A DNA stretch of 64,000 bases from contig CALRHC010000001.1 of NCBI GenBank assembly GCA_943359335.1, positions 22,466 through 86,465 on the forward strand. Direction: 5' to 3'. The position numbers were made by a program, and so were the translations under genes. This DNA is from Candidatus Yanofskybacteria bacterium (GTDB lineage: Bacteria; Patescibacteriota; Minisyncoccia; JACQLN01). Shown one piece after another: positions 7,267 to 64,000 of this stretch (position 1 is the first letter of the stretch; every line of letters begins with the position of its first letter). Below the pieces are notes generated by a model. That model did not search any database, had not been told where the DNA came from, and worked only from the letters and a program-made list of their open reading frames with translations.

Positions 7267-7289
7267 AGAAGCTAGTGAAGCTAAAAGCT
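7258..7289 (+). repeat. right arm (GCTAATGAAGCT type) of the palindromic repeat family, ending at the ATG at 7290
   Basis: AGCTAAAGAAGCTAGTGAAGCTAAAAGCT|ATG; same arm precedes ATGs at 15601, 20835, 23430, 33591 and 36412(-). Confidence 0.6.
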
Positions 7290-9005
7290 ATGAATGACGA
7301 AATAACTTTATTTGCCGAAACAAATTTTAGAAACGAGAAGCGTCGTTTTGGTATTAAAAAAGACGATCGCCGCAGGCACACCTATATTATTGGAAAAACC
7401 GGTATGGGTAAAACGACCATGCTCGAAAACATGATTATTTCGGATATTATTCATGGCAAGGGTTTAGGTTTTATAGACCCACACGGGGATTCGGCCGAGA
7501 AAATTTTAGAATTTGTTCCACCAGAACGCATAAACGATGTAATTTATTTCGATCCTTCCGATTTAGAAATGCCTATAGCTTTTAATGCTATAGAAAATGT
7601 TGAAGCCGAAAAAAAGCATTTAGTAGCTTCGGGTTTGATGGGTGTGTTTAAAAAAATCTGGCCCGATGTATGGTCGGCCAGAATGGAATATATTTTAAAC
7701 AATACTATTTTAGCTTTGCTAGATTACCCTGGCGCCACTATTTTGGGTATTATGCGAATGCTTTCTAATAAAGAATACCGCAAGCAAGTGGTGGATGAAA
7801 TTAAGGATCCAATGGTTAAATCTTTCTGGGTAGATGAATTTGCTAAGTATACAGATAGATTTGCGGCCGAAGCCACTCCAGCTATTCAAAACAAAGTTGG
7901 GCAGTTTTTATCGGCTGCGGTTATTCGTAATATTGTAGGCCAAGTAAATAGTGCTATGGATATGCGCAAGGTTATGGACGAAGGCAAGATTTTAATTATG
8001 AACCTTTCCAAGGGCAAAATCGGCGAAGATAATTCTAAACTTTTGGGTGGTTTGCTGGTTACAAAATTACAGTTAGCAGCTATGAGCCGTGTAGATATTC
8101 CCGAAGAAGACCGTAAAGATTTCTTTTTATACGTAGACGAGTTTCAGAATTTTGCGACAGAATCTTTTGGTAATATTCTTTCCGAAGCTCGCAAATATCG
8201 CTTAGCCCTTATTTTGGCTAATCAGTACATTGCTCAATTAGTGCAAAGCGTGGGTGGTTCTAAAAGCACAGCGGTGCGAGACGCAATATTTGGTAACGTT
8301 GGTACCCTAATTTCTTTTAGGGTAGGCGCCGAAGATGCCGAATATTTAGAAAAAGAATTTGCACCAGAATTTGTGGCAACCGATATTGTTAATTTAGCCA
8401 AATACAATGTTTACTTAAAACTTATGATAGACGGCGCAGCTTCGCGGGCTTTTTCGGCCACAACTTTAGCTCCATACCCAAAACCAGCTGTTAATAATCG
8501 CGATGCCATTATTAAACATTCTAGGGAAACTTATGGCACACCTCGCGAAGACGTAGAAAATGAAATAGCCGATTGGGCTGGTGTTAGAGATTTAATGCCA
8601 TCTAGTATAAAAGCAGCAAAAGCAGAAAGTGATGCTGCTTTTCGTGATGGTTACGATACAGAAGCCGCACCAGCGGTTTCTGCTTCCAAGCCAAAAAGCG
8701 ACAAAGATCTTTTTGAAGCTGTTTGTTGGGAGGGTGGGGAAAAAGTTTGGGTGCCATTTAAACCAGATGGAGTCCGCCCAATTTATTGTAAAAACCATTT
8801 ATATAAATTAAACGAAGTTAAACAGCAAGTTATTTTTGAACAGTTTAAACCAGTAAGTTTGAAAGATGCTTTGCAGAAGGGCGGCATAGTTAATCACATA
8901 GGTAATAATCCTCGTCCAAATAAAAAGAAAAATAAACCTAAAGAACCTCCAGCCGATATAGAAGGTTTGCGTTCGCTGCTTTCCGATATCAAGCCAACTA
9001 CTTAA
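7290..9005 (+). CDS. P-loop ATPase of the TraD/VirD4/HerA-FtsK-like superfamily (T4SS DNA-binding-domain type) with C-terminal Cys/His zinc-ribbon-like motif
   Basis: Walker A IIGKTGMGKTT, Walker B LYVDEFQNF; C-terminus CWEGGEKVWVPFKPDGVRPIYCKNH; start set at ATG 7290 (ORF-track GTG 7275 lies inside the repeat arm) by analogy with the other repeat copies. Confidence 0.6.
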   Translation: MNDEITLFAETNFRNEKRRFGIKKDDRRRHTYIIGKTGMGKTTMLENMIISDIIHGKGLGFIDPHGDSAEKILEFVPPERINDVIYFDPSDLEMPIAFNAIENVEAEKKHLVASGLMGVFKKIWPDVWSARMEYILNNTILALLDYPGATILGIMRMLSNKEYRKQVVDEIKDPMVKSFWVDEFAKYTDRFAAEATPAIQNKVGQFLSAAVIRNIVGQVNSAMDMRKVMDEGKILIMNLSKGKIGEDNSKLLGGLLVTKLQLAAMSRVDIPEEDRKDFFLYVDEFQNFATESFGNILSEARKYRLALILANQYIAQLVQSVGGSKSTAVRDAIFGNVGTLISFRVGAEDAEYLEKEFAPEFVATDIVNLAKYNVYLKLMIDGAASRAFSATTLAPYPKPAVNNRDAIIKHSRETYGTPREDVENEIADWAGVRDLMPSSIKAAKAESDAAFRDGYDTEAAPAVSASKPKSDKDLFEAVCWEGGEKVWVPFKPDGVRPIYCKNHLYKLNEVKQQVIFEQFKPVSLKDALQKGGIVNHIGNNPRPNKKKNKPKEPPADIEGLRSLLSDIKPTT

Positions 9006-9512: not shown

Positions 9513-10616
9513 ATGTCAAATAGTGTTGATCGAAAGGTATACATAGGAATGTCGGGCGGGGTTGATAGCTCTGTTGCCGCTTTGTTGTTAAAAAACGAAG
9601 GCTATAATGTAACCGGTGTTTTTATGAAAAACTGGAGCGATCCAGCTTGGCCTTGCCCATGGGAAGAAGATCGCGCCGATGCTATGCGAGTTTGTTTAAA
9701 ACTTGGTATACCTTTCGAAACTTGGGATTTTACTAAAGAATACAAAGAAAAAGTTGTAGATTATATGATCCGCGAATACGCGGCCGGCCGAACGCCAAAC
9801 CCAGATGTAATGTGCAATAAAGAAATTAAGTTTGGTTTATTTTTTAATAAAGCCATAGAACTTGGTGCAGATTTTATTGCAACGGGACACTATGTGAGAA
9901 AAATCAAAAATCAAAAATCAAATCTCAAAAATTATGTACTCGCTCGCGCTCGCTATTTAGATAAGGATCAGTCTTACTTTCTTTGGACGCTCAAGCAGGG
10001 TCAGATAGAAAAATGTTTGTTTCCAATAGGCGAAATAGAATCTAAAGCCGAGGTTAGAAAAATTGCAGAAGGAGCAAGCCTGCCTACGGCAGGTAAAAAA
10101 GATTCGCAGGGAATTTGTTTTATGGGACCGGTAGATATAAAAGAATTTATAAAACCATTTGTTAAAAAAGAAATTGGCGATATTGTTACAACTTCTGGCC
10201 CTGGTCGGGCAAGCCAAAAAGTTGGCACGCATGGCGGTTTAGATTTTTATACTATCGGCCAACGCAAAGGTGTCGGCATTGGCGGCACGGGACCATATTA
10301 TGTTGCTAAAAAAGATTACGAAACTAATACACTAATTGTTTCACCTGTTACAGATATGCAATCATTGGAATCCAAATCGCTTACAGCTTCCGATATAAAT
10401 TTTATAGATGAGCGATTTGTCCCGAGTGCAGCCGAGGGAATCCAAATTCAAGCTTCTATTCGTTATCGCCAAGAACCAGTCTCGGCAGTATTGTCGAAAT
10501 TAGAAAACAATAAATACAAGGTAGAATTTGAAAAACCAGTTCGTGCCGTATCTTCCGGCCAATCAGTTGTGTTTTATAATGGAGACGAAATGTTGGGTGG
10601 TGGCGTGATAGAATAA
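9513..10616 (+). CDS. mnmA: tRNA-specific 2-thiouridylase MnmA
   Basis: PP-loop SGGVDSSVAA, catalytic Cys region, C-terminal barrel; contains a low-complexity insert KIKNQKSNLKN encoded by (ATCAAAA)3. Confidence 0.85.
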   Translation: MSNSVDRKVYIGMSGGVDSSVAALLLKNEGYNVTGVFMKNWSDPAWPCPWEEDRADAMRVCLKLGIPFETWDFTKEYKEKVVDYMIREYAAGRTPNPDVMCNKEIKFGLFFNKAIELGADFIATGHYVRKIKNQKSNLKNYVLARARYLDKDQSYFLWTLKQGQIEKCLFPIGEIESKAEVRKIAEGASLPTAGKKDSQGICFMGPVDIKEFIKPFVKKEIGDIVTTSGPGRASQKVGTHGGLDFYTIGQRKGVGIGGTGPYYVAKKDYETNTLIVSPVTDMQSLESKSLTASDINFIDERFVPSAAEGIQIQASIRYRQEPVSAVLSKLENNKYKVEFEKPVRAVSSGQSVVFYNGDEMLGGGVIE

Positions 10617-15520: not shown

Positions 15521-15600
15521 ATCATCAGCTTCACTAGCTTCATTAGCTTATTAGGATATCAAACCTAAAAACTAAAGAAGCTAAAAGCTAAAAGCTAAAC
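15521..15600 (+). repeat. intergenic palindromic repeat (AGCTTCACTAGCTTCATTAGC ... GAAGCTAAAAGCTAAAAGCTAAAC|ATG)
   Basis: Member of the six-copy family; fills the whole rpsK-rpsD spacer and ends at the rpsD ATG. Confidence 0.6.
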
Positions 15601-20758: not shown

Positions 20759-20834
20759 CTTCAAAAGCTTGTTAGCTTCTTTAGCTTGGTTAGGAAAATC
20801 TAAAAGCTAATGCAGCTAATGAAGCTAAATTTTA
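20759..20834 (+). repeat. intergenic palindromic repeat (AGCTTGTTAGCTTCTTTAGCTT ... AAGCTAATGCAGCTAATGAAGCTAAATTTTA|ATG)
   Basis: Family member ending at the holB ATG. Confidence 0.6.
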
Positions 20835-23358: not shown

Positions 23359-23429
23359 CTTTCAGCTTCATTAGCTTTTAGGAAACTACCTATAAGCTAA
23401 CGAAGCTAACGAAGCTAACGAAGCTAATC
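23359..23429 (+). repeat. intergenic palindromic repeat (AGCTTTCAGCTTCATTAGCTTTT ... (GCTAACGAA)x3 GCTAATC|ATG)
   Basis: Left arm complementary to the right arm; right arm is a 9-bp tandem repeat; ends at the rseP ATG. Confidence 0.65.
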
Positions 23430-30260: not shown

Positions 30261-30336
30261 TGGCTGTGCCCCAGGGAGTCGAACCCCGATAGCCTCCTCG
30301 TTTAGAGGTGGTGTCCTGCCATTGAACGAGGGCACA
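30261..30336 (-). tRNA. tRNA of unresolved identity with non-canonical anticodon arm (19 nt in place of 17)
   Basis: Acceptor UGUGCCC/GGGCACA (U1-A72), D-arm GUUC-AAUGGCA-GGAC, T-arm CGGGG-UUCGACU-CCCUG, encoded GCCA; anticodon region CCACCUCUAAACGAGGAGG folds only as an imperfect stem with a 5-, 7- (CUAAACG) or 9-nt loop. Confidence 0.5.
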
Positions 30337-33506: not shown

Positions 33507-33587
33507 ACACAGCTTCGTTAGTTGTTAGCTTCGTTAGCTTTTAGTAAATTTTGAAAGCTAGTGAAGCTAGAAGCTAAAAGCTAAATA
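33507..33587 (+). repeat. intergenic palindromic repeat (CAGCTTCGTTAGTTGTTAGCTTCGTTAGC ... GCTAGTGAAGCTAGAAGCTAAAAGCTAAATATTG|ATG)
   Basis: Family member ending at the recA ATG (33591). Confidence 0.6.
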
Positions 33588-33590
33588 TTG

Positions 33591-34634
33591 ATGGCTAAAA
33601 AAAATATAGTTCCAGAAGAAAAATTTCCTGTAAAATCAAATAGTAAGGGTTTACAAGAAACCGTAAAAGAAATCAGAGAACGTTTTGGAGAAGGTTCCAT
33701 AATGGCTTTGGGCGATGCACCAAAAGTAGATGTTGATGCGATTCCAACAGGATCAATTTCTTTGGATCTGGCTTTGGGTGTGGGTGGAATACCAAAAGGA
33801 AGGGTAGTAGAAATATATGGCCCGGAAAGCTCTGGTAAAACAACTCTAACTTTGCATATTGTAGCCGAAGCACAGCGACGTGGTAGTTTAGCTGCTTTCG
33901 TTGATGCTGAACACGCACTTGATCCAGACTATGCTAAAAAGATTGGTGTTAACATAGATGATCTTTTGGTTTCACAACCAGATAATGGTGAACAAGCATT
34001 AGACATTGTGGAGGCCTTGGTAAAATCTGGTAGGGTCGGTGTTGTGGTTGTAGATTCTGTAGCAGCATTAACTCCTCAAGCCGAAATAGATGGCGAGATG
34101 GGCGATATGCAAATGGGTTTGCAAGCAAGATTAATGTCTAAGGCGCTTCGAAAACTTACAAACATTGCTTCTAAAAGCGGAACAACAGTTATATTTACAA
34201 ACCAAATAAGAATGAAACTTGGTGTTATGTTTGGCAACCCAGAAACTACTCCGGGTGGAAATGCTTTAAAGTTTTTTTCTTCGGTAAGAATGGATATTCG
34301 CCGCATCGCGCAATTAAAAAGCAAAGAAGAAATTGTTGGAAACCGTGTCCGTGTAAAAGTTGTAAAAAATAAAGTAGCCGCGCCTTTTAGGCAAGCAGAG
34401 TTTGATATTATGTATAACCAAGGTATTGCATCGCTCGCGGATATTTTGCAAACAGGTGTGCGCTTGGGTGTGCTAGATAAATCTGGTTCTTGGTATCAAT
34501 ACTCTGGGCAGAAAATAGGGCAGGGCACAGAAGCCACAGTAGCCTATTTAAAAGAAAACGTTAAAACATCTTTACAGATATTAGAAGAAATAAAAAAGAA
34601 ATCTATAGACGCTCAAACAGCTTTAACAGCCTAA
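33591..34634 (+). CDS. recA: recombinase RecA
   Basis: [13 protein letters not shown] Walker A, L1/L2 loops; ATG 33591 preferred over TTG 33588. Confidence 0.9.
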
Positions 34635-34636
34635 AC

Positions 34637-34668
34637 AAAAACCCTCCGACCAATATCGGAGGGTTTTT
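34637..34668 (+). terminator. intrinsic terminator ACCCTCCGA-CCAATA-TCGGAGGGT + TTTTT
   Basis: CTCCGA-family hairpin; sibling at 35617. Confidence 0.7.
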
Positions 34669-34738: not shown

Positions 34739-35614
34739 ATGCCTCGTAAACGTCAGGCTGCCGAATTAGTTTTTGATGATGAGTCTGAATTGTTAATTTA
34801 TTTTAATGATATAGAAAATTCAAGAGGTCTCTCAGCAGAGATAGAACAAGTACTTTCAAGGGATATAAAAAATGGAGACGAGGAAGCTCTAAAAAGACTT
34901 GTTTCGAAAAACCTTCGCTTTGTTGTTAGTATTGCTAAAGAATATGTGGGTAATGGTGTATCTCTCCCTGATCTAATTCAAGCCGGTAATATGGGTCTTA
35001 TTGTGGCAGCTAAGAGATTTGATGGAACAAAGGGTTTTAAACTTATTTCATATGCTGTCTGGTGGATAAGGCAAGGAATTCTTCAGACTTTAGCGGAACA
35101 TTCTCGTATAGTTCGTTTGCCAACAAATAAAGTTGGTGAACTGATTAGATTGGGTAAGATAGATAAAAAAATGACTCAAGTCTTGGGACGCGCTCCAACT
35201 ACAAAAGAAATTACTGAGGCATACAAAGAGATTGATAATATTGAAGATCTTAGGATGATATCACAAAAGCCGGTTTCTTTAGACGAAAGGCTTGAAGACG
35301 ACAGTCTGAATACTTTTTTAGATTATTTAACGGATAACAGTCAGTCTGTAGAAGAATCTATAGAAGTTAGCGAGATACGTACTATTATTTCCGATGGTAT
35401 AAAACTCCGTTTGGATGATAGAGAAGCTAGGGTTATAAGGCGTTATTTTGGTTTAGATGGAGCTCCTCCTCAAACCTTAGAACAAATAGCTACAGAGTTG
35501 AAAGATAAAAAAGGAACTAGAAAACTAACAAGAGAAAGAGTTCGTCAAATAAAGGAAAGGGCTTTGCCCAAGTTGCGTGCCTATATTAGAAGTAGAATGG
35601 TTGATGTTCTTTAA
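34739..35614 (+). CDS. RNA polymerase sigma factor, sigma-70 family (alternative; regions 2-4 only), strong SD AAAGGAGG
   Basis: Region 2 LVSKNLRFVVSIAKEYVGNGVSLPDLIQAGNMGL..YAVWWIRQ, region 4.2 TLEQIATELKDKKGTRKLTRERVRQIKERAL. Confidence 0.75.
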   Translation: MPRKRQAAELVFDDESELLIYFNDIENSRGLSAEIEQVLSRDIKNGDEEALKRLVSKNLRFVVSIAKEYVGNGVSLPDLIQAGNMGLIVAAKRFDGTKGFKLISYAVWWIRQGILQTLAEHSRIVRLPTNKVGELIRLGKIDKKMTQVLGRAPTTKEITEAYKEIDNIEDLRMISQKPVSLDERLEDDSLNTFLDYLTDNSQSVEESIEVSEIRTIISDGIKLRLDDREARVIRRYFGLDGAPPQTLEQIATELKDKKGTRKLTRERVRQIKERALPKLRAYIRSRMVDVL

Positions 35615-35616
35615 AC

Positions 35617-35650
35617 AAAAACCCTCCGATATTGTTCGGAGGGTTTTTTA
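35617..35650. terminator. bidirectional terminator ACCCTCCGAT-ATTGT-TCGGAGGGT between convergent sigma gene and rpsR
   Basis: A-run upstream, T-run downstream. Confidence 0.7.
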
Positions 35651-35651
35651 T

Positions 35652-35897
35652 TTATCTTACGTGTTGTGTAAACGGTAGCAAGCCGGCAATGCGGGATCGC
35701 TTTATAGCGTTAGCCACTCGGCGTTGGTGTTTAGAACAATTGCCAGTACGAGTTCTAGAAGCGATTTTATATTGGTGGGTTAAAAAGCTTTTAAGCCCAG
35801 CTGCTTCTTTAAAATCGACAACGTCAATATCGTTCGTGCAAAAATAGCACTGCTTTTTTTCTACCTTTGCTTTTTTATGTGTTGGTTTATATGCCAT
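35652..35897 (-). CDS. rpsR: 30S ribosomal protein S18
   Basis: CYFC..IDVVDFK....LK.F.....KI..RTRTGNCSKHQRRVANAIKRSRIAGLLPF. Confidence 0.85.
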   Translation of the reverse strand: MAYKPTHKKAKVEKKQCYFCTNDIDVVDFKEAAGLKSFLTHQYKIASRTRTGNCSKHQRRVANAIKRSRIAGLLPFTQHVR

Positions 35898-35929
35898 GTT
35901 TTTCTATGAATTTCTTAGTATAGACAATA

Positions 35930-36412
35930 TTAGAAGGGAATGTCCGAAATGTCAACTTCCTCGGCATCTTGTTCTATTATTGGTATGTTTTCTTCTTTTT
36001 GATTTTGACTTCTTTCTTGGGGTTTATTTGCTACTGGAGTATTTGGTCTGCTAGATGTAAAACTTGCTCCGCTTGTCTCACCAGCTGTTCTGGGTCCTAA
36101 CTGTATAGCTTCGGCGACAACTTCGGTTCTGTATTTTTTTGTGCCATCGGCTGCGTCCCAGCTTCGGTTTTGAATTCTACCTTCTACTAAAACCATTTTG
36201 CCCTTGTTTAAATATTTGGCACAGGTTTCAGCCATTCTGCCAAAAACAACAACATTATGAAACTGAGTATCTTGTTGTTTTTGTCCGCTTTTGTCGTTCC
36301 ATACTCTGTTGGTAGCAACTGCAAAGCTTGCGACAGTTCCGCCTGATGGTAGCGAACGCACTTCTGGGTCTCGGGTTAAATTACCAAGAACAAATATTTT
36401 GTTAAGATTCAT
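35930..36412 (-). CDS. ssb: single-stranded DNA-binding protein
   Basis: OB fold NKIFVLGNLTRDPEVR...FHNVVVFGRMAE..YL.KG..V.VEGR; acidic tail ending DISDIPF. Confidence 0.9.
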   Translation of the reverse strand: MNLNKIFVLGNLTRDPEVRSLPSGGTVASFAVATNRVWNDKSGQKQQDTQFHNVVVFGRMAETCAKYLNKGKMVLVEGRIQNRSWDAADGTKKYRTEVVAEAIQLGPRTAGETSGASFTSSRPNTPVANKPQERSQNQKEENIPIIEQDAEEVDISDIPF

Positions 36413-36497
36413 TAATTAGCTTTTAGCTTTTAGCTTTTAGCTTTTAGCTTTTTAGAAAATTCCTAACAAGCTAATGAAGCTAATGAAGCTAGTTTTA
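36413..36497 (-). repeat. intergenic palindromic repeat (minus-strand reading: TAGCTTCATTAGCTTCATTAGC ... (AGCTAAA)x5 AGCTAA|ATG of ssb)
   Basis: Five 7-bp tandem AGCTTTT units on plus; same family and same placement immediately 5' of a start codon. Confidence 0.65.
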
Positions 36498-36959
36498 CTA
36501 CTTAAGTAATTCTTCTAATTTTTTATCAACTTCTTCTGTATTCATTTCTACAACTTCTGGTTTTTGTTCAACTACAGGAGCGGTCTCGAAAACAGGAGCA
36601 GGTTTTCTTTCTGTTCTATATTGGCGAGGTTCAAATACAGGTAACGATTTTGTCTTCTTTAACATTTTTTCTGTCTTGGCAATAAGCATATAGCGCAAAA
36701 CATTTTCGCCGTGGCGTAATTGAGTTTCAACTTCTTTAGGAAAGATAGCTTCTTCTCCACCAGAAAGTTCTAAATCTACAGTGTTACCCTGCATAGAATG
36801 TTTAATAGGGTATGGTAAATATTCTCCTAATTTTATTTTAGAGTATGTGATCCCAAAACCACTTTTTGCTAAAGTATCGGTTGTTTCGGAAACAAATTTA
36901 TTAACGCCTTCTTCGTTTAAAGTTGGCTTTAAAACAATATATAGTTCGTACAATCTCAT
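36498..36959 (-). CDS. rpsF: 30S ribosomal protein S6
   Basis: MRLYELYIVLKPTLNEE...; start moved to the internal Met (36959) because S6 begins MR.YE..; rpsF-ssb-rpsR order conserved. Confidence 0.85.
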   Translation of the reverse strand: MRLYELYIVLKPTLNEEGVNKFVSETTDTLAKSGFGITYSKIKLGEYLPYPIKHSMQGNTVDLELSGGEEAIFPKEVETQLRHGENVLRYMLIAKTEKMLKKTKSLPVFEPRQYRTERKPAPVFETAPVVEQKPEVVEMNTEEVDKKLEELLK

Positions 36960-37124
36960 AGACCCGAGTTTATCAGGTTTTACTTGCCAAAACAAGAGGT
37001 TTAGGTTGACTATTGACAATACCTTTAATATAGACTATACTATAACCATAGTTCATTTTTTATAAAATAGGCGGCGACGGCCTATGACGGTCGCTATTTA
37101 AATGTTTTTCAATGGGAGGTTCCT

Positions 37125-37946
37125 ATGAGTTCTTCGAGGCAGTTGGTTGAGAGGTTGGAGAAGGCGGAAGTTCAAAGAAACACCCGTCTCAATCCGATGA
37201 CGGTCATCGGGAAAGAAGAGATCATGCTCCGGTGGAGCAAACAGCAGATCGCGATCCTTATCCCTGGGGACAAGATCATGACTGACCTCTACGAAGAGGC
37301 TCTGGAAGCTGATCCCTGCATGGTGCTCCGCGACGGCGATTCGTTCGAGTACGAGGGTGTCGACGAACACGGACGAAAAATAAAGTACTGGGTGACCTGC
37401 TACCTAAACGAACATGGCTTGGCTCGTTACAGCCGTGACGACGAGACCAAGAAAAACACTCGAGAGAGGTACCAGACAGAGGCTGCAGAGATCGCCAAGC
37501 TGAAGGACACCTATGGTTTCGATGGTGTCGCCATCAACAAGTTGAGAGCGGCATCCCGAGTAGGGCTTCTGCTTTCCCCTGTGGTTTGGCTCGAGAATGC
37601 TTTGAAGATGCAGGGTGAGGCAGATGTGGTGAGGAATCTTCTCGCAACTCTCTTCAAGGGTGCTGAGAATTTTCCGGAGAAAGAATTCCGGAGCATCCTG
37701 AATCACATCGGCTTCGAACCCCCCGTTGAAACTGGCAGGGACTTTGTCTCCGTATGCTTCGGGGTGAGGGCTTTGCTGGTGAACATCGACTTTGGCAAGA
37801 AGGTTGTTGAGCCCGAGACCAATGGTCACGCGAAGATCAACGGCAACGGTTACCACAATCCCTCCGAAGACGGGCCTGCCATCGGTCCAGAACACGCCAA
37901 ACGGGCGGCTGGCATCAGCGAAACGTTCGCGCCGGTCGTCCAGTAA
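37125..37946 (+). CDS. hypothetical protein (273 aa) in a GC-rich (about 55%) laterally acquired insert; own SD GGGAGG and terminator
   Basis: Sharp compositional break versus flanking about 34% GC; many antisense ORFs typical of high-GC coding DNA; no motif recognised. Confidence 0.55.
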   Translation: MSSSRQLVERLEKAEVQRNTRLNPMTVIGKEEIMLRWSKQQIAILIPGDKIMTDLYEEALEADPCMVLRDGDSFEYEGVDEHGRKIKYWVTCYLNEHGLARYSRDDETKKNTRERYQTEAAEIAKLKDTYGFDGVAINKLRAASRVGLLLSPVVWLENALKMQGEADVVRNLLATLFKGAENFPEKEFRSILNHIGFEPPVETGRDFVSVCFGVRALLVNIDFGKKVVEPETNGHAKINGNGYHNPSEDGPAIGPEHAKRAAGISETFAPVVQ

Positions 37947-37970
37947 TAGCTACAAGTAAGCAGTACCTTA

Positions 37971-38000
37971 AGAGGTTCCTAAACAGGAACCTCTTTTTTA
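37971..38000 (+). terminator. intrinsic terminator AGAGGTTCCT-AAAC-AGGAACCTCT + TTTTTTA
   Basis: Perfect 10-bp stem and T-run 25 nt after the stop. Confidence 0.8.
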
Positions 38001-38033
38001 TTTTTGCTTACTGATACATAATGCAAATATAAT

Positions 38034-39785
38034 ATGAATTCTCAAGTAGAAGATATTAAAAATCGCTTAGATATCGCCGAAGTTATTCAGGGCTATTTAA
38101 AATTGCAAAAAGCTGGTGCCAACTGGAAAGGCTCGTGCCCGTTTCATCACGAAAAGACCCCTTCTTTTGTGGTAACACCTGCTAGGCAAATTTGGCATTG
38201 TTTTGGTTGTGGTGAAGGTGGTGATGTTTTTTCGTTTGTGCAAAAAATGGAGGGTTTGGAATTTTATGATGTTTTAAAAATGTTGGCCGAAAAAGCTGGA
38301 GTTAAATTAATAAAACGCGACCAAGATGTAGAGTTGGGTTCGCAGAGAAAAAGAATTTACGAAATTTCGGAACTTGCTACAAAATTTTTTGAACGCCAGT
38401 TGTTATCAAAGCAGGGTCAGCTAGCTGGAGAATATTTAAAAGATAGAGGTGTAACCAAAGAATCTTTAATTAGTTTTAGAATTGGTTGGGCACCCGATAC
38501 TTGGCAATCATTGCATAACTTTTTAAGTAGTGAGGGTTATACCGATGATGAAATAGATAAATCGGGACTTGCAGTAAAAAGCGAAACAACGGGCGAATAT
38601 CACGATAGGTTTAGACACAGAATAATGTTTCCCATAGCCGATAGCCAAGGGCAGGTGATTGGTTTTACCGGAAGAATTTTTGAAAAAGTAAAAGGTAAAA
38701 CTGTGCACGAAGATGCGGGAAAATATGTTAATACTCCAAGTACAATTTTATACGATAAATCGCAGGCACTTTATGGTTTAGATAAATCTAGAACATATAT
38801 TAGAAACGAGGGCTGTATTTTGCTGGAAGGTACAATGGATGTTTTAATGTCGCACCAAGCTGGTGTAAAAAATGTTGCGGCAACTTGTGGTACGGCTTTT
38901 GGTGTGGGGCATGCCAGAATAATTAAAAGATACACAGAAAAATTAATGCTAGCGTTTGATGCCGATGATGCAGGAGATTCTGCTTTAAAAAAAGGTGTGA
39001 ACATGGCAATTGCTTCGGGGCTTAATGTTTCGGTAATTTCTATTCCCTCGGGTAAAGATACGGCGGACGCTGTAAAAGAAGATCCAAAACTTTGGAGCGA
39101 GTCGGTTTCAAAACCCGTGCCATACTTAGCTCATATTATAAATAGATCGCTAAAAGATTTTTCTGGAACATTGGAATCTAAAAAGAATGTTTTAGTAAAT
39201 GTTTTGCCGTTTATAAAAAGTATTGTTTCTCCGTTAGATAAAGATTATTGGTTAGAAGAACTTTCGCATAGAGTTGGTGTAGCAAGGGATGTTTTAAATT
39301 TGGAATTAAAACAATTACCTGTTCAGGATTTTAACTCCACATTACAGGCTCCCAGTATACTTTCTTCTAAGGTTATTGCTTCTCCAAAAGATTTGCCGGG
39401 TTTACGTCAAGAAGAGTATCTGCTATCTTTACTATTAAGATATCCAGACTTAAAAGGCCGCCTTGGCAATGAGGAGCTAGAATTATTCTCCCAGCCAAAC
39501 TTATTTTCGCTGGCCCAAAGTCTACTGGCAAATGACGGAACCAAAATTCCGGATTCGGCTGATTCTCGCTTGATTGCTATGAGCGAACTAATAGCCGATT
39601 TTAATATTGATCCGGAAGACGAATTTGCTAGAACTCTTGTTAGTTTAAAAAAACAAAGTTTGCAGTCTAAGCTTAAAGTTATTCAAGCCGATATTAAAAA
39701 AGCTGAAGCCGATGGCGACAGCCAAGCTTTGAATCTTTTGCTTAAGGAATTTGGCGAACTTTCTCAAAAATTATTAAATATATAA
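38034..39785 (+). CDS. dnaG: DNA primase
   Basis: Zinc-binding CPFHHEKTPSF..WHCFGCGEGGDV, TOPRIM domain (EGTMDV, LAFDADDAG). Confidence 0.9.
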   Translation: MNSQVEDIKNRLDIAEVIQGYLKLQKAGANWKGSCPFHHEKTPSFVVTPARQIWHCFGCGEGGDVFSFVQKMEGLEFYDVLKMLAEKAGVKLIKRDQDVELGSQRKRIYEISELATKFFERQLLSKQGQLAGEYLKDRGVTKESLISFRIGWAPDTWQSLHNFLSSEGYTDDEIDKSGLAVKSETTGEYHDRFRHRIMFPIADSQGQVIGFTGRIFEKVKGKTVHEDAGKYVNTPSTILYDKSQALYGLDKSRTYIRNEGCILLEGTMDVLMSHQAGVKNVAATCGTAFGVGHARIIKRYTEKLMLAFDADDAGDSALKKGVNMAIASGLNVSVISIPSGKDTADAVKEDPKLWSESVSKPVPYLAHIINRSLKDFSGTLESKKNVLVNVLPFIKSIVSPLDKDYWLEELSHRVGVARDVLNLELKQLPVQDFNSTLQAPSILSSKVIASPKDLPGLRQEEYLLSLLLRYPDLKGRLGNEELELFSQPNLFSLAQSLLANDGTKIPDSADSRLIAMSELIADFNIDPEDEFARTLVSLKKQSLQSKLKVIQADIKKAEADGDSQALNLLLKEFGELSQKLLNI

Positions 39786-41163: not shown

Positions 41164-43254
41164 TTACTCTTTGCCAAGGAATTTTTTCCAGCCAGGGAAA
41201 TCCTTATAGAAATAATATGGATTACCCGGAAGTTTTGGATCATTTCTATATGATCTTGTATACATAGGTCCTGAGATGATGTTCAGCTTTATCGCCGCTC
41301 TAGAAGCTTCTTTCCATGTTTTGTACTTAATGGATCCACCCAAGAATATAATCCAGCCAGGGAAATCTTTATAAGTCTCATCCGGATTACTTGGGAGTCT
41401 CTCATCTTTTTTGTAGTATCTTTGATACTTGGGTCCAGATGTGATGCCTAGAGATATGGCCGCTACTCCTGCCTCTTGCCAAGTCGGATATCTAACAGTT
41501 CTGTCTAAGAATACTGACCATCCCGGAAAGTTTTGGTAAGTAATTCTAGGTATTGATGGTAGCTTTCTATCTTTTTTATATTCTCCACTTTTATAACCAG
41601 ATGATGTTTTGATGCTCAACTTTACCGCCGCTCTAGAAGCTTCTTGCCAAGTTGGGTAAAAAATATTTTGTAAGAATTCTCCATATCCAGGAAAATCAGG
41701 ATAGGTACTGTTTGGATTTGATGGTAGCCTAGGGTCTTCCTTGTATCTCTCGTTCTTCTTGTAGTCTGTCGTATCTCTAATACCCAACTTTATCGCCGCT
41801 CTAGAAGCTTCTTGCCATGTCGGATACACATTTTCAGCAGTACGCTTGGGACCGCCCTTTCCTAAAAAAACATTCCAACTAGGAAAGTTTTTATAGGTAT
41901 ATGATGGATCTGGTGGTAACTTGTTATCTTTGCGATACATCTCTCGGTATTCGGATACTTTTTTAAGACCAAGTTTTTGTGTGGCTTGTGACGCTTCTTC
42001 CCATGTAGTATAGAATTCTCTTTCGCAATGATCTAGAACTTTCATTAAATCCACTACCTCATCAGAGAAAGTGAACTCAAATCCCTTTCCAGACACTTCA
42101 AACTTTTGTCTAGTATAACCTTCATGTTCTATCTCTTTTTTAGAAGTGTATTCTTCGTGAAGATTGGAAATTTTGTTCATCATCTCAAGTACTAGCTGAA
42201 TACGCTCAAGATTTCCCACAAAGTCTAGAACTATGAGCTTATCTTTTCCAGGACGAAGTCCGCGGCCAAGTTGTTGCCGAAAGACAGTCAAAACTCCAGT
42301 AACTCGGCAGAATGCAACCAATCCAACAGATGGAACATTAACTCCTTCGTTGAAAGCATTTACTGCACATACCCTGCGAACCGTTCCGTTATGCAAAGCT
42401 CCGAGAACTTTTTGGTTCTTACTCCAAGAGTCGTTCTTGTCTTTGCCTTTGCGTGAATGAAATGTTTCTGAAAGTTCAAGTGATTTACTGAGTCTTTCAG
42501 CGTGGGTAATTGAGTCGCAAAATACAACTGCTTTTTCAAGATAACCATTTATGATTCTCGTGATTTCTTCGTCACGTTTCCTTATAAAGATTCGGCGGTT
42601 AACTTCTGCCATGGTAAAACGTTTCTTGCCTTCATGGATTTCAGCTGTAATTTCTTGAAGTACTTTATCGTCCAAACTCTGGTCGGTAATAACGTGATAC
42701 TCAATTCTAGGAAGCCAACTACGGGCAATAGCTTCTTCTAGAGTTATGTTAATCACTTCGGGACCAAAGATGCTACGAATGTCTGCTCCATCTTCGCGGT
42801 CAGGTGTAGCAGTAAGACCGAGCTTAGCTCCGGTGAAGTAATTAGTTACTGGTCGATACGTTTCAGCTTCCGAGTGATGGGCTTCGTCTACGATGATCAA
42901 ACCAAAATGATTTCGTGACCATTGTTTAAGATTGTTTCTCATGGTCTGCCAAGTGGCAAAAACAATATCTCCTTCTTTTGCTCCGTTCTTTGACATGCCA
43001 TTATATATAACCATTCTAGTTTTTCTTTCATCAAAAACTAGGCCGAATTCATCAAGGGCGTGTTTCAGAATATGGTTGTTATGAACCAAAAACAAGGTTT
43101 TTTTGGGACGAAATTTCTTTGTAACAAATATAGCTGTTAGGGTTTTGCCCAAACCAGTAGCCATTACAACCAATGCTCTTTTAGAGTGACTACGTAATTC
43201 TTTCAGAGCGGCTTTAGTGGCTAGCTCTTGGTAAACACGAGGTTCTATCTTCAA
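41164..43254 (-). CDS. SF2 DEAD/DEAH-box (ResIII-type) helicase with five C-terminal tandem repeats of about 55 aa
   Basis: Walker A MATGLGKT, DEAH box IVDEAHH, helicase-C QQLGRGLR; repeats YPTWQEASRAAIKLGI...YK.D.RLPSNP..TY.DFPGW..FLG x5; GC about 41%. Confidence 0.65.
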   Translation of the reverse strand: MKIEPRVYQELATKAALKELRSHSKRALVVMATGLGKTLTAIFVTKKFRPKKTLFLVHNNHILKHALDEFGLVFDERKTRMVIYNGMSKNGAKEGDIVFATWQTMRNNLKQWSRNHFGLIIVDEAHHSEAETYRPVTNYFTGAKLGLTATPDREDGADIRSIFGPEVINITLEEAIARSWLPRIEYHVITDQSLDDKVLQEITAEIHEGKKRFTMAEVNRRIFIRKRDEEITRIINGYLEKAVVFCDSITHAERLSKSLELSETFHSRKGKDKNDSWSKNQKVLGALHNGTVRRVCAVNAFNEGVNVPSVGLVAFCRVTGVLTVFRQQLGRGLRPGKDKLIVLDFVGNLERIQLVLEMMNKISNLHEEYTSKKEIEHEGYTRQKFEVSGKGFEFTFSDEVVDLMKVLDHCEREFYTTWEEASQATQKLGLKKVSEYREMYRKDNKLPPDPSYTYKNFPSWNVFLGKGGPKRTAENVYPTWQEASRAAIKLGIRDTTDYKKNERYKEDPRLPSNPNSTYPDFPGYGEFLQNIFYPTWQEASRAAVKLSIKTSSGYKSGEYKKDRKLPSIPRITYQNFPGWSVFLDRTVRYPTWQEAGVAAISLGITSGPKYQRYYKKDERLPSNPDETYKDFPGWIIFLGGSIKYKTWKEASRAAIKLNIISGPMYTRSYRNDPKLPGNPYYFYKDFPGWKKFLGKE

Positions 43255-43364
43255 TTTAGACCACCTTTCTTTTCGGTAGGTATTTAATTTTTAAGGATCA
43301 AAAAGCATTTTATGCTTTGGCAACGATTATAACAATAATTATAGTTTTGTCAAGATTTTATTAG

Positions 43365-43415
43365 CTTTCTTAGTTCGCAATCTTTTTCGCCGCAGAATTT
43401 GTTCCAAAACCTTAA
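43365..43415. repeat. direct repeat DR1: degenerate copy of the last about 22 codons of the 43993..46866 gene
   Basis: CTTTCTTAGTTCGCAATCTTTTTCGCCGCAGAATTTGTTCCAAAACCTTAA matches 44006..44065 (about 85% identity, 9-nt deletion); minus-strand translation gives LRFWNKFCGEKDCELRKLIKS* versus LKFWNKFCGEKDCEYCELRKLIS*. Confidence 0.7.
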
Positions 43416-43441
43416 GTTTCACTGTTACTGTGGATAGAGTG

Positions 43442-43470
43442 TTGACTTCGCTTAAGTGTGTGAGTATAAT
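43442..43470 (+). promoter_or_regulatory. sigma-70 promoter TTGACT-17-TATAAT for the toxin-antitoxin cassette
   Basis: Consensus hexamers 40 nt upstream of 43510. Confidence 0.6.
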
Positions 43471-43509
43471 TGTAACATAATTTGTTACAATTAATTTTTT
43501 AATAAAAAC

Positions 43510-43725
43510 ATGCGTAATATAGTTAATATATCTTTACCTAAAGAGATGGTTCAAGCAGTAGAAGAAAGTATGAAGAAGAATAATTTTGCTACCAAAAGCG
43601 AATTTTTTAGGGCTATTTTGAGAACTTGGTTGGAAGATAAATTAGCTAAAGAACTAGAGGAGAGTAGAAAAGAATTACAGCAAGGTAAGGGTAAAATTTT
43701 AAAATCTCTTAAAACTCTTAGGTAA
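43510..43725 (+). CDS. ribbon-helix-helix (CopG/ParD-like) antitoxin
   Basis: 71 aa; ISLPKEMVQAVEESMKKNNFATKSEFFRAILRTWL is a RHH motif; directly upstream of a RelE/ParE-like ORF. Confidence 0.65.
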   Translation: MRNIVNISLPKEMVQAVEESMKKNNFATKSEFFRAILRTWLEDKLAKELEESRKELQQGKGKILKSLKTLR

Positions 43726-43734
43726 ACTTACCCA

Positions 43735-43992
43735 ATGCAGATTTACTATTCCACCAAGTTTAAGAGGGAATATAAAAAACTGCCAAAACAAGTAAAACTT
43801 TTAGCGGAAGAAAAAGAACAAATTTTCAGAAAAGATCTTTTTGATAAAAGGCTAGATACTCATAAATTACACGGTAAGCTAAAAGAATATTGGGCTTTTA
43901 GTATAGATGGTAAAAATAGAATAGTTTTTGAGTTTGCCAAGAAAAATGCTATTTGGTTTCATTCAGTTGGCGATCATTCTATTTATTATTAA
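43735..43992 (+). CDS. RelE/ParE-family type II toxin
   Basis: 85 aa; YSTKFKREYKKLPKQVK..L..HKLHGKLKEYWAFSIDGKNRIVFEF.....I.FHSVGDH fits the RelE/ParE fold signature. Confidence 0.65.
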   Translation: MQIYYSTKFKREYKKLPKQVKLLAEEKEQIFRKDLFDKRLDTHKLHGKLKEYWAFSIDGKNRIVFEFAKKNAIWFHSVGDHSIYY

Positions 43993-55687: not shown

Positions 55688-55727
55688 CAAAACATCCAGC
55701 TCGCCTAGAGAGCTGGATGTTTTTGTT
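55688..55727. terminator. bidirectional terminator AACATCCAGCTC-GCCTAGA-GAGCTGGATGTT with A-run/T-run; 3' end of both rnhA (+) and rnpB (-)
   Basis: 12-bp perfect stem; core CCAGCT...CCTAGA...AGCTGG repeated at 56221. Confidence 0.7.
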
Positions 55728-56170
55728 AAGAAAGTCGTAAGCCGAATTCTGTCTTGCCTCAACGGCAAGGATAATCATCTGTCTGGGATTGTTATTGCTA
55801 ACAACCTCTGGCGACTCTTCCTTAATAATTTAGATTACTAAGGACACGGTCTTGCACCAAGTGGGGTTTACAACTATTTAGTATTGCTACTAAACAGAAT
55901 CGCGTTTGACGCGACACTTTTCACCTTTAGACTCAATTTTTACATTGAGCTTAGTATAGTCTCTGTTGCATAGGCTCACGGAATCAGCTGTCATCAATGA
56001 ACCTATATCCAATAAAGGACACTTTCCCTGGGCTTGAACCTAATTTTCATTAGATCTGCTCCCGGTTGCATTTCGCAACCACTTGTTTCCTCCGTTTATT
56101 CAACGGATTCGGTGTTCGGACTTTCCTCAATCCATTTTTAGATGAATTGCGATTATCTCACTTTCTTAAC
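55725..56170 (-). ncRNA. rnpB: RNase P RNA (bacterial type)
   Basis: Minus strand carries the universal GAGGAAAGUCCGAACACC (P4 5' strand), ACAGAAUUCGGCUUAC (P4 3' strand) and a perfect P1 GUUAAGAAAGU/ACUUUCUUAAC; minus-strand promoter TTGACT-17-TATCAT at 56205..56177; no ORF of substance. Confidence 0.85.
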
Positions 56171-63905: not shown

Positions 63906-64000
63906 TTCTTGAGGTTCGGTTTCTGCTTTAGCAAAGCTTTTTATTATAGGGTCCATATTGCCATCTAAAACTTTATCTATTTGGCTCCAACTTTTTTTAA

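Follow-up and report, generated by a model that had tools for sequence, protein, structure and literature searches.

The window analysed here is a stretch of 64,000 nucleotides from a Candidatus Yanofskybacteria contig. It contains, in a gene neighbourhood made up of recA, sigma, rpsR, ssb, rpsF, dnaG and rpoD, a GC-rich island with a single gene, hereafter X. In 200-nt windows, GC goes from 0.33-0.35 (positions 36800-37099) to 0.50-0.57 (37100-37999) and then to 0.37-0.39 beyond; in 40-nt steps, the climb starts at about 37060 and the drop lies at about 37940-37980. The interval 37100-37950 has about 54% GC, against about 35-36% for its flanks, which confirms the abrupt jump described in the original prediction for this locus. 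The features are as follows:

37013..37041, + strand: sigma-70-type promoter TTGACA-17-TATACT (scanner match, 11/12 to consensus)
37048..37124, + strand: inferred 5′ UTR of about 77 nt (transcription start inferred about 7 nt past the -10 element; alignment of 8 leaders)
37060..37953, no strand: replaceable segment (blastn and pairwise alignments, window versus lineage L092)
37068..37094, + strand: predicted H-type RNA pseudoknot of 27 nt (pairings S1 and S2, covariation)
37114..37119, + strand: Shine-Dalgarno (SD) sequence GGGAGG, 5 nt 5′ of the ATG
37125..37946, + strand: coding sequence of protein X, 273 aa, pI 5.7 (coding statistics, family alignment, AlphaFold model)
37970..38005, + strand: intrinsic terminator (11-bp stem, 4-nt loop, T-run; hairpin at 37970-37995)
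37098..37895, - strand: a pair of antisense frames (37098..37370, 37404..37895) that are no genes

X is a genuine protein-coding gene, since its open frame of 282 codons exceeds those of all 2000 shuffles of the island (mean 108, maximum 273) and the domain of the product that is best conserved, the helical core, has a dN/dS of 0.07. The ORF, for which 273 residues had correctly been predicted, has 54.1% GC, i.e. 0.58, 0.38 and 0.67 at codon positions 1, 2 and 3, with GC2 below both GC1 and GC3. The genes adjoining X have a GC3 of 0.23-0.35, and the mean for 27 host genes of the window is 0.265 (SD 0.028), which places X at +14.5 SD; this comparison, suggested in the original prediction, agrees with its picture of an orphan gene of foreign-looking composition in a housekeeping neighbourhood. 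A second GC3 outlier in the window is an S55-like lipoprotein, likewise fast-diverging. The two antisense frames noted earlier do exist; such frames measure about 180 to 363 codons and are interrupted at differing points in different alleles, consistent with their being, as was proposed, a by-product of G/C-ending sense codons.

The island constitutes a self-contained monocistronic unit, with promoter, pseudoknot leader, AU-rich spacer, SD, ORF and terminator. Its near-consensus promoter, canonical SD and canonical terminator (the last two had been recognized in the original prediction) are all unusual for this genome: for instance, a canonical SD of at least 6 nt is found in just 4 out of 57 genes. 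AAGCTAA repeats were considered as a possible SD substitute, but they form oppositely oriented intergenic arrays and are more likely hairpin elements. The same TTGACA-17-TATACT promoter is present in L001, L005 and most other alleles, and is identical between the window and L092; it is located in the conserved flank, outside the segment that is swapped (see below). The terminator, whose sequence is kept among alleles, also sits in a conserved flank. Between promoter and gene, the leader consists, in this order, of a variable 5′ part, the pseudoknot, an AU-rich spacer (UAUUUAAAUGUUUUUCAAU) and the SD.

In the predicted pseudoknot, S1 pairs 37068-37072 with 37080-37084 and S2 pairs 37074-37078 with 37090-37094, leaving loops of 1, 1 and 5 nt. 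Over the alignment 98.8% of cells are paired, versus 15-46% when the partners are slid. S2 displays two fully compensatory pairs (G-C to C-G in L090 and G-C to A-U in L092), A-U, G-U and G-C pairs are seen across alleles in S1, and only 6 out of 500 shuffles reach the covariation score. The pseudoknot occurs once in the window and, in all loci, is found only upstream of X; a search for the leader pattern in viral, phage and plasmid records gave no match. Rfam was scanned with the whole window, with the island and with the leader by itself, at gathering thresholds and at E<=10, and gave no match over 37060-37950. This 27-nt H-type structure with compensatory changes is a candidate new cis-regulatory RNA. 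Two other interpretations of the leader were discarded: an upstream ORF starting from an ATG within the pseudoknot, since this ATG is not kept (GUG, AAG or ACG in three alleles), and a mini-ykkC/guanidine-type riboswitch suggested by two ACGG motifs, for which no tetraloop-presenting hairpins could be drawn by eye.

How widespread is X? The family amounts to about eight sequences among the billions of proteins searched: X itself and one other match among 5.8e9 clusters, five strong matches among 1.84e9 representative proteins, and five matches when a profile of the family was used as query. Every member sits between S6 (rpsF) and DnaG in one small clade of Patescibacteria. Of the related lineages, eight have rpsF beside dnaG; X is present in each of them, even in one whose DnaG is only 76% identical, and no empty rpsF-dnaG site was seen; 79 more distant relatives have neither X nor the rpsF-dnaG adjacency. 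GC-rich patches upstream of dnaG in some distant relatives (L069, L032 and others) were examined as possible analogous cassettes and turned out to be unrelated genes. No homologue was detected outside the clade in the 1.84e9 representative proteins, in viral contigs, or in phage or plasmid records. There are no flanking repeats around X, no mobility genes among its neighbours and no tRNA at the locus, the closest tRNAs lying 7 kb off. X is therefore a resident gene of one small clade and not a fresh insertion. The original prediction, according to which the island was almost certainly a recent lateral acquisition, had proposed to look for an empty site in relatives and had named a gene present at this position in all of them as counter-evidence; within the clade, the latter is essentially what is seen. 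For the gene as such, in the absence of empty site, donor, mobility genes and amelioration, the idea of a recent acquisition is not supported. What survives of it concerns the level of alleles.

Comparison of the window with L092 provides the clearest case of allele exchange. Their flanks are 94-97% identical at the nucleotide level (S6 protein 100%, 5′ end of dnaG 96%), yet their X proteins share only 32% identical residues and no nucleotide similarity is detectable across 37095-37953. The differences start at about 37060, with breakpoints at about 37060-37095 on one side and at 37953, just past the stop codon, on the other; the pseudoknot therefore travels with the allele. L092, from the Hainich groundwater series, is a contig of 2.5x coverage with an N gap, so that an assembly chimera is possible, but the junction sequence common to lineages is shorter than the usual assembly k-mers, which counts against it. 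An apparent frameshift in L092 X is just a run of Ns. Disagreement in the other direction is provided by L093 and L005, independently of L092: these lineages are 0.83 identical in RecA and 0.66 in S6, and 0.80 in X. In addition, a C-terminal tail module is common to X of the window and of L091. Taken as a whole, alleles differing by 50-68% in the X protein are found on near-identical flanks. At the sequence level, then, the segment from just 5′ of the pseudoknot to just 3′ of the stop codon appears as a replaceable cassette, and the tree of X alleles can be seen to disagree with that of the flanks in both directions. This two-way disagreement indicates that X alleles are exchanged by homologous recombination in the conserved flanks; it follows that recombination may well have brought the window its own allele.

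The divergence of X is uneven: dN/dS is 0.30 overall, with the low value already given for the helical core and values >1 in the N-terminus and tail, against 0.03-0.08 in core genes. Diversifying or frequency-dependent selection would presumably maintain this diversity, as it does for genes that take part in conflicts with phages, hosts or competitors, and the anti-defence, toxin or host-interaction roles envisaged in the original prediction are compatible with such hypervariability. A small sigma factor encoded 1.5 kb from X is equally hypervariable and is swapped between close strains. Co-evolution of X with this sigma factor was considered and rejected, because their pairwise identities are uncorrelated (for L093-L005, 0.80 in X and 0.47 in sigma). 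The GC3 of the sigma gene is 0.23-0.27, and that of two other rapidly replaced small genes is low as well.

The composition of X does not follow that of its hosts. GC3 is 0.66-0.77 in every allele, when that of host core genes is 0.23-0.36 in five lineages and 0.40-0.64 in two lineages of higher GC. Synonymous sites are saturated (pS about 0.65, dS about 1.5, pS being 0.62-0.73 in all allele pairs but one). Since GC3 stays at this level in spite of saturation, the high GC is being maintained and is no leftover; it is an equilibrium property, held whatever the GC3 of the host, and the opposite of what an un-ameliorated recent import would display. As to the force responsible, we think of selection on the message as the main one. 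In 7 out of 7 alleles, the X mRNA folds more stably than permutations of its synonymous codons: z runs from -0.96 to -6.7 and is only -1.6 for the window allele, while host genes average -0.39 (Mann-Whitney p=0.003). Per nt, the minimum free energy (MFE) of the X mRNA lies at about -0.36 to -0.44, and that of host genes at -0.17 to -0.27. The MFE of the consensus fold has a z of -4.7 relative to codon-column shuffles, a control confounded by the clustering of conserved blocks; no covariation excess was found in the consensus fold of the body of X, shuffles reaching a covariance term at least as good. The elevated GC3 is not a general consequence of allele exchange, because the hypervariable sigma neighbour keeps a low GC3. 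The sequences provide, at this point, no positive reason for a GC-rich message to be needed by this particular gene.

Our reading, which we hold to be probable, is thus that X is a resident gene of the ‘conflict type’, whose alleles are swapped on an expression platform that stays conserved. Several other explanations have to be weighed against it. One is that the window allele, and others too, recently recombined in from an unsampled relative with about 55% GC, and that the GC is simply that of the donor. Allele exchange is real, GC does vary in the group (about 36-38% for the window and L001, about 46% for L005 and L093, and possibly 41-51% if we judge by the names of Taylorbacteria MAGs), and GC1 and GC2 of X are slightly raised as well. 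However, the composition of X fits that of its host in none of the eight lineages: even in the GC-richest hosts, GC3 of X is 0.70-0.71, compared to 0.40-0.57 for most core genes and 0.55-0.64 for ssb. Moreover, the 1.84e9 representative proteins contain no X homologue from a GC-rich genome, and alleles that are saturated at synonymous sites and yet equal in GC3 would demand a continuous one-way flow from an unsampled source. We regard this explanation as unlikely, if less so than those that follow. A variant of our own reading, to which we would give a slightly lower and still small likelihood, is that the GC set-point of X is under direct selection: a GC-rich, highly structured mRNA with ‘universal’ bacterial expression signals, kept up through synonymous saturation and repeated swaps of alleles, would have to survive or function in special conditions, and its expression would be gated by a new class of pseudoknot leader that co-evolves with the allele. 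Such conditions could be, for example, RNase attack during a conflict with a phage or toxin, or a GC-richer partner cell in which the gene is expressed or to which it is delivered, the X-bearing bacterium being presumably episymbiotic.

Another possibility is GC-biased gene conversion, frequent exchange of alleles at a recombination hot spot pushing GC up in the converted tract. Recombination accompanies higher GC3 in many bacteria (PMC4450053). In our case, the GC-rich tract is the exchanged tract, and the fast-diverging S55-like lipoprotein mentioned above is the second GC3 outlier. But the sigma factor located only 1.5 kb away and the two further rapidly replaced small genes have low GC3 values, and the AU-rich spacer, although within the exchanged tract, is not enriched in GC. 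Furthermore, the bacterial effect of recombination on GC is expected to be much smaller than the +0.4 of X, and gene conversion seems improbable to us as the cause. Only a little less improbable than the next two is that X is an ordinary clade-specific housekeeping accessory, such as a replisome or transcription partner of DnaG, SSB or sigma, evolving fast under relaxed constraint and with an incidental composition. The universal presence of X in the clade, at a fixed place among recA, ssb, dnaG and rpoD, and the purifying selection on its core domain would suit such a role, which we nevertheless find doubtful because relaxed constraint leaves unexplained how X can be as little as 32% identical when the backbones are nearly the same, why the trees disagree in both directions, and how a GC3 14.5 SD off that of the genome is kept across lineages.

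In AT-rich genomes, a GC-rich island is frequently a structured RNA, and the segment might be, or also be, a functional RNA for which the ORF is secondary (a dual-function RNA). The stability of the X mRNA in all alleles, a consensus fold better than column shuffles and the strong promoter and terminator go in this direction. On the other hand, the low GC2 relative to GC1 and GC3, the frame exceeding all shuffles and the strongly constrained core are signs of a protein gene, the body lacks covariation excess, no Rfam family matches, and the alleles are unalignable in nucleotides while the protein is conserved. A structured RNA as sole explanation is thus largely refuted, and we deem the whole proposal very unlikely. 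Lastly, targeted hypermutation in situ of the transcribed region (DGR-like or transcription-coupled) in place of allele exchange would agree with a divergent tract running roughly from leader to terminator, but deserves hardly any credence given the incongruence in both directions (with X more conserved than S6 in L093 versus L005), the lack of a reverse transcriptase, template repeat or other repeats nearby, and the divergence of all codon positions together with strong purifying selection in the core.

What kind of protein would such a conflict-type gene encode? X begins with a basic N-terminal helix (aa 2-22; net charge of the first 25 aa +2 to +4 among alleles), followed by a beta-rich domain (aa 25-106), a long helix (aa 107-130), a helical bundle (aa 134-221) and a disordered tail (aa 227-273). 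In the AlphaFold model (pLDDT 75.6), the order of elements is beta1-3/alpha/beta4-6. Six of the seven alleles have a tail with a net charge of -7 to -18; in that of the window it is -2. Neither a signal peptide nor a transmembrane segment was found, and the product should be soluble and of cytoplasmic type. The earlier statement that the protein has no recognisable motif stands: neither single sequences nor the family profile, used as queries, gave a match in Pfam, NCBIfam, PADLOC or PDB sequences, PHROGs matched only at E>0.1, and Foldseek against PDB and BFVD yielded only insignificant PAS/LOV-like and miscellaneous matches. An exhaustive search also returned P0007, a coiled-coil repeat protein of 2356 aa that matches the long helix by composition and is spurious. 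X can be described as an orphan two-domain protein without known fold relatives. It is probably a soluble factor that binds nucleic acids or proteins, its N-terminal helix being basic and its disordered tail mostly acidic.

Comparison with known systems is instructive in several respects. In the operator of phage T4 gene 32, an RNA pseudoknot of about 28 nt on the 5′ side precedes an AU-rich stretch of lesser structure that contains UUAAA/UAAA elements and the RBS, and in gp32 the N-terminal ~20 residues give cooperativity and an acidic C-terminal segment binds partners (PMC535899). Similarly, X has a 27-nt pseudoknot followed by an AU-rich spacer (UAUUUAAAU in three of eight alleles) and an SD, its product starts with a basic helix and ends in a mostly acidic tail, and the gene lies near ssb, dnaG and recA. 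A single UUUAAAU, to be compared with the UUAAA/UAAA of T4, is found in the leaders of the window, L005 and L093 and is absent from the other five. The two proteins differ otherwise: X shows no sequence or profile similarity to SSB or OB-fold proteins (an hhalign run against the neighbouring SSB gave a probability of 0.2), no OB-fold chain appears among its fold-search matches, it has no conserved zinc-site residues, and gp32 is neither hypervariable nor compositionally deviant.

Strain-variable replacement loci between core genes, e.g. those for surface antigens, specificity subunits or immunity genes, are under diversifying or frequency-dependent selection. X is like them in its conserved flanks, sharply bounded alleles, incongruent tree, mosaic of modules and, in places, dN/dS above 1; it is unlike them in being soluble, of no known family, and a single gene on a dedicated platform of promoter, leader and terminator. 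To our knowledge, an extreme GC3 offset persisting in all alleles has not been described for such loci. With a classical acquired islet, X shares an abrupt, gene-sized island with its own expression signals, but not the empty site, donor, mobility genes, repeats or amelioration. As in an integron cassette, the promoter is in the platform, and the exchanged unit starts 3′ of this promoter and extends up to a hairpin-forming element; unlike in integrons, there is no integrase and no attI/attC-like repeat, and the alleles belong to one family at a single site. An integron mechanism is not needed, because homologous recombination in the flanks suffices. Two further systems were looked for. For a diversity-generating retroelement, there is no reverse transcriptase domain in the neighbours and no repeat of X sequence within 9 kb, and, unlike in a target of such an element, the divergence of X covers the whole gene. 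As for the small subunit of type III CRISPR systems (Cas11/Cmr5/Csm2), seven X members gave no Pfam or PADLOC match, the called genes of L001 and L003 (+/-10 kb) contain no cas domain, and no CRISPR-like repeat was found at 33-42 kb of the window.

The pseudoknot would be a post-transcriptional control site for X. The most economical model would be autogenous translational repression in the style of phage T4 gene 32: protein X would nucleate on the pseudoknot and then cover the adjacent AU-rich region with the RBS. Autoregulation of X is here a pure analogy with the phage system.

A resident gene with a +0.4 GC3 offset as its equilibrium is a counter-example to the rule that a compositional island means recent horizontal transfer. 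Therefore some force, whether a local bias of an unusual kind or selection acting on the message, would have long held X off the composition of its genome, and X thus offers a very simple system in which to test for selection on synonymous sites. The biology of conflicts and host interactions of the ultra-small CPR/Patescibacteria is almost unknown. In X, as sampled through eight alleles, several of which are on short contigs, these bacteria have a strain-level hypervariable locus with a defined exchange unit and a defined platform, which could be tracked in metagenomic time series.

Windowed GC bears out the abrupt compositional jump claimed in the original prediction: in 200-nt windows, GC is 0.33-0.35 over 36800-37099, 0.50-0.57 over 37100-37999 and 0.37-0.39 beyond, and in 40-nt steps it goes up from near 37060 and down at 37940-37980. 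The 273-aa gene (X) and its strong Shine-Dalgarno (SD) sequence and terminator, proposed at the same time, are also present:

37013-37041, + strand: promoter TTGACA-17-TATACT, 11/12 match to the sigma-70 consensus
5 nt upstream of the ATG, + strand: SD sequence GGGAGG
37125..37946, + strand: X open reading frame, 273 aa, GC1/GC2/GC3 of 0.58/0.38/0.67
37970-37995, + strand: terminator hairpin, then a T-run

X is a real coding sequence, because its open frame of 282 codons is longer than any obtained in 2000 shuffles of the island (mean 108, maximum 273) and the protein is under purifying selection. The comparison with core genes that had been suggested places its GC3 14.5 SD from that of 27 host genes of the window (0.265 ± 0.028); the neighbours recA, small sigma factor, rpsR, ssb, rpsF, dnaG and rpoD have values of 0.23-0.35. 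At four-fold sites, A (0.11 vs 0.26) and T are avoided, C and G favoured. X is among the only 4 of 57 window genes with a canonical SD of at least 6 nt, and 39 of the 57 window ORFs of at least 120 aa show no SD-like match. Two neighbouring genes, rpsF (start 36959, - strand; -10-like TAAACT 7 nt ahead of the ATG) and dnaG (start 38034, + strand; preceded by the conserved TGATACATAAT), may lack a leader or have only a very short one.

The X family comprises the window protein and about seven relatives in the available protein universe: an exhaustive search of 1.84 × 10^9 representatives gave five strong hits, a profile-query search five hits, and a search of 5.8 × 10^9 clusters one further cluster. 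The order S6 (rpsF product, -), X (+), DnaG (+) is found in every relative with fetchable DNA (loci L001, L005, L085/L088, L090, L091, L092 and L093). The nearest GTDB representative, L005 (DnaG 76% identical), has X and an intact recA-sigma-rpsR-ssb-rpsF-X-dnaG-rpoD. The empty rpsF-dnaG spacer that was to be looked for in relatives did not appear in a DnaG-anchored survey of one genome per GTDB species; the 79 relatives that come next after L005 (Patescibacteria/Parcubacteria-type MAGs, DnaG 36-48%) have neither the rpsF-dnaG adjacency nor X. There is no integrase, tRNA or flanking repeat near X, and no homologue among viral contigs, phage records and plasmid records. A resident, clade-specific and hypervariable gene carried on a conserved expression platform, not a fresh insertion, is the best-supported reading. 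Of the proposed 'recent lateral acquisition', recent acquisition of the gene is not borne out, and what stands is lateral exchange of its alleles. L091 has, between the X terminator and dnaG, an extra 206-aa gene (1211-1831, - strand; no Pfam hit) seen in that one lineage.

That exchange is clearest in L092, a contig with 94-97% nucleotide identity to the window across 35886-37094 and 37954-38281 (S6 protein 100% identical, dnaG 5' end 96%), whereas the two X proteins share 32% identity, the family minimum, and blastn finds no similarity across X. In pairwise alignment the divergence begins just upstream of the leader pseudoknot, from about 37060, and ends a few bases past the stop codon, at about 37953. 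Within these bounds X behaves as a replaceable cassette. Conversely, L093 and L005 have X at 0.80 despite core divergence equal to that of any pair (RecA 0.83, SSB 0.84, S6 0.66), and a C-terminal tail module (about 77% nucleotide identity over 66 nt) is common to the window and L091 but missing from the others. Since the incongruence runs in both directions and the alleles are mosaic, the alignments point to exchange by recombination in the conserved flanks. The same two observations argue against in-situ hypermutation as the source of the divergence, and there is neither a reverse transcriptase nor a template repeat. At 2.5x coverage L092 could conceivably be a chimera; this caveat is softened because sequences common to lineages at the junctions are at most 15 nt, which would be shorter than usual assembly k-mers, and because the L093/L005 result is independent of L092. 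An apparent frameshift in L092 X was ruled out, being a run of Ns. Most of rpsR (S18) appears absent between the sigma fragment and ssb (L092 380-423 vs window 35685-35885), which reflects a deletion or else an artefact of the 2.5x assembly.

Another hypervariable gene lies between recA and rpsR:

34739-35614, + strand: small sigma-70-family factor
34632-34668 and 35612-35648: nearly identical GC-rich hairpin elements of 33-37 nt bracketing it, 97% complementary as an inverted repeat

Its product is 0.44-0.58 identical in all lineage pairs, even at RecA 0.96; for the L092 fragment, identity to the window is 41% on the near-identical backbone. The gene, whose SD is a perfect AAGGAGGT, may be a second replaceable cassette.

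GC3 of X is 0.66-0.77 across all alleles and does not track the host, since it holds whether core genes are at 0.23-0.36 (five lineages) or mostly at 0.40-0.57, with ssb at 0.55-0.64 (the higher-GC L005 and L093). A comparison of the window with L001 gives 91-94% identity for core proteins (dN/dS 0.03-0.08) vs 49% for X (dN 0.46, dS 1.5, dN/dS 0.30). Within X, dN/dS falls to 0.07 in the helical core (codons 145-224) and exceeds 1 at the start (codons 1-25) and in the tail. With a single exception, allele pairs are effectively saturated at synonymous sites (pS 0.62-0.73). Because every allele shows the same composition although synonymous substitutions exceed one per site, it is at equilibrium, the opposite of an un-ameliorated import, and active maintenance is the best-supported reading. 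A role for GC-biased gene conversion, which is documented as correlating with bacterial recombination (PMC4450053), is opposed by the equally hypervariable sigma factor 1.5 kb upstream, whose GC3 is a normal 0.23-0.27, and by two further rapidly replaced small genes that are also low in GC3. Donor composition is unlikely, as no lineage or donor of matching composition exists. There is some positive support for selection on the X message: folding energies are -0.36 to -0.44 kcal/mol/nt for X mRNAs vs -0.17 to -0.27 for host genes, and each of the seven alleles is more stable than permutations of its own synonymous codons (z -0.96 to -6.7, mean -2.7), whereas z averages -0.39 ± 1.24 in ten host genes (Mann-Whitney p = 0.003). 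General structuredness is better supported than one specific conserved structure, because the consensus fold, though more stable than codon-column shuffles (z -4.7), has no covariation excess and its control is confounded.

Further features of the window are as follows:

3528/3540-5474, + strand: S55/SpoIVB-peptidase-like lipoprotein, 644-648 aa, lipobox LLGLNAC, second GC3 outlier
30261-30336, - strand: tRNA-Phe, anticodon AAA (ARAGORN), beside tRNA-Gly(GCC)
41164-43254, - strand: SNF2/ResIII helicase with four 'integrase repeat' units, downstream of rpoD
55723-56168, - strand: ordinary bacterial RNase P RNA class A, 145 bits
36416-36450(-)/36468-36483(+), 33525-33584, 23371-23427, 20772-20828 and 15543-15598: examples of AAGCTAA arrays

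The lipoprotein (GC3 0.48, z = 7.7; about 0.5 in both window and L001) is also among the four genes with a strong canonical SD and is fast-diverging (60% identity to the L001 orthologue vs 88-93% for neighbours). It has distant relatives in Acidobacteriota and Gemmatimonadota, and adjoins DUF8128 and a TrwB/VirD4-like coupling protein (7275-9005). The AAA call is odd; Rfam at gathering threshold gave only tRNA-Gly. An RHH/YafQ-like toxin-antitoxin pair also lies downstream of rpoD (genes listed for L003, an identical contig); since helicase and pair (41164-43900) are absent at the matching L001 position (14235), they form a strain-variable insertion ahead of a UvrD/PD-(D/E)XK helicase-nuclease. 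The heptamer AAGCTAA (55 copies vs 26.7 ± 4.4 expected) clusters intergenically in oppositely oriented tandem arrays that could form long hairpins, and it may represent an intergenic repeat or terminator element specific to the lineage. A GC-rich patch (about 0.45-0.46) after lepA, from 63100 to the window end at 64000, contains no ORF above 67 aa and matches nothing in Rfam at E<=0.01.

The X leader contains a 25-nt core, GGCGGCGACGGCCTATGACGGTCGC (37070-37094), far better conserved than the coding region and confined to the region upstream of X, with one copy in the window, one per X locus and none in viral contigs. Its predicted H-type pseudoknot has loops of 1, 1 and 5 nt:

37068-37072 with 37080-37084, + strand: stem S1
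37074-37078 with 37090-37094, + strand: stem S2

On the eight-allele alignment 98.8% of cells are paired, vs 15-46% with partners slid. Two changes in S2 are fully compensatory (G-C to C-G in L090, G-C to A-U in L092) and a further two involve G-U, one S1 pair varies between A-U, G-U and G-C, and only 6 of 500 shuffles match the covariation score. Nested-only folding recovers either S1 or S2, depending on the allele. Rfam holds no match, and the leader is best described as a new pseudoknot. In L001 the called start of P0002 (288 aa) is a non-conserved AUG within it (10001-10045); the annotation is probably 15 codons too long, the aligned start giving 273 aa as in the window.

In line with the lack of a recognisable motif remarked on at the outset, X matches nothing among protein families, solved structures or RNA families. 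The product is acidic and soluble, without a hydrophobic segment, and its AlphaFold model (seven sequences; pLDDT 75.6, residues 21-226 above 80) comprises:

aa 2-22: helix
aa 25-106: beta1-3/alpha/beta4-6 domain
aa 107-130: long helix
aa 134-221: helical bundle
aa 227-273: disordered tail

Foldseek against PDB and BFVD returned nothing significant. The T4 gene 32 operator is a pseudoknot followed by an AU-rich spacer and the SD (PMC535899), and the X leader has the same layout, with a pseudoknot of about 27 nt and an AU-rich spacer carrying UAUUUAAAU in three alleles. The basic N-terminal helix and acidic disordered tail of X also recall the domain logic of gp32; hhalign of X with the neighbouring SSB is negative, and fold searches gave no OB-fold chain. 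Because the breakpoint lies upstream of the pseudoknot, the latter moves together with its X allele. Were the predicted pseudoknot the cis site recognised by the encoded protein, such co-travel would be the behaviour required. By analogy alone, X may be autoregulated in a gp32-like manner. It may also have a role in genetic conflict.
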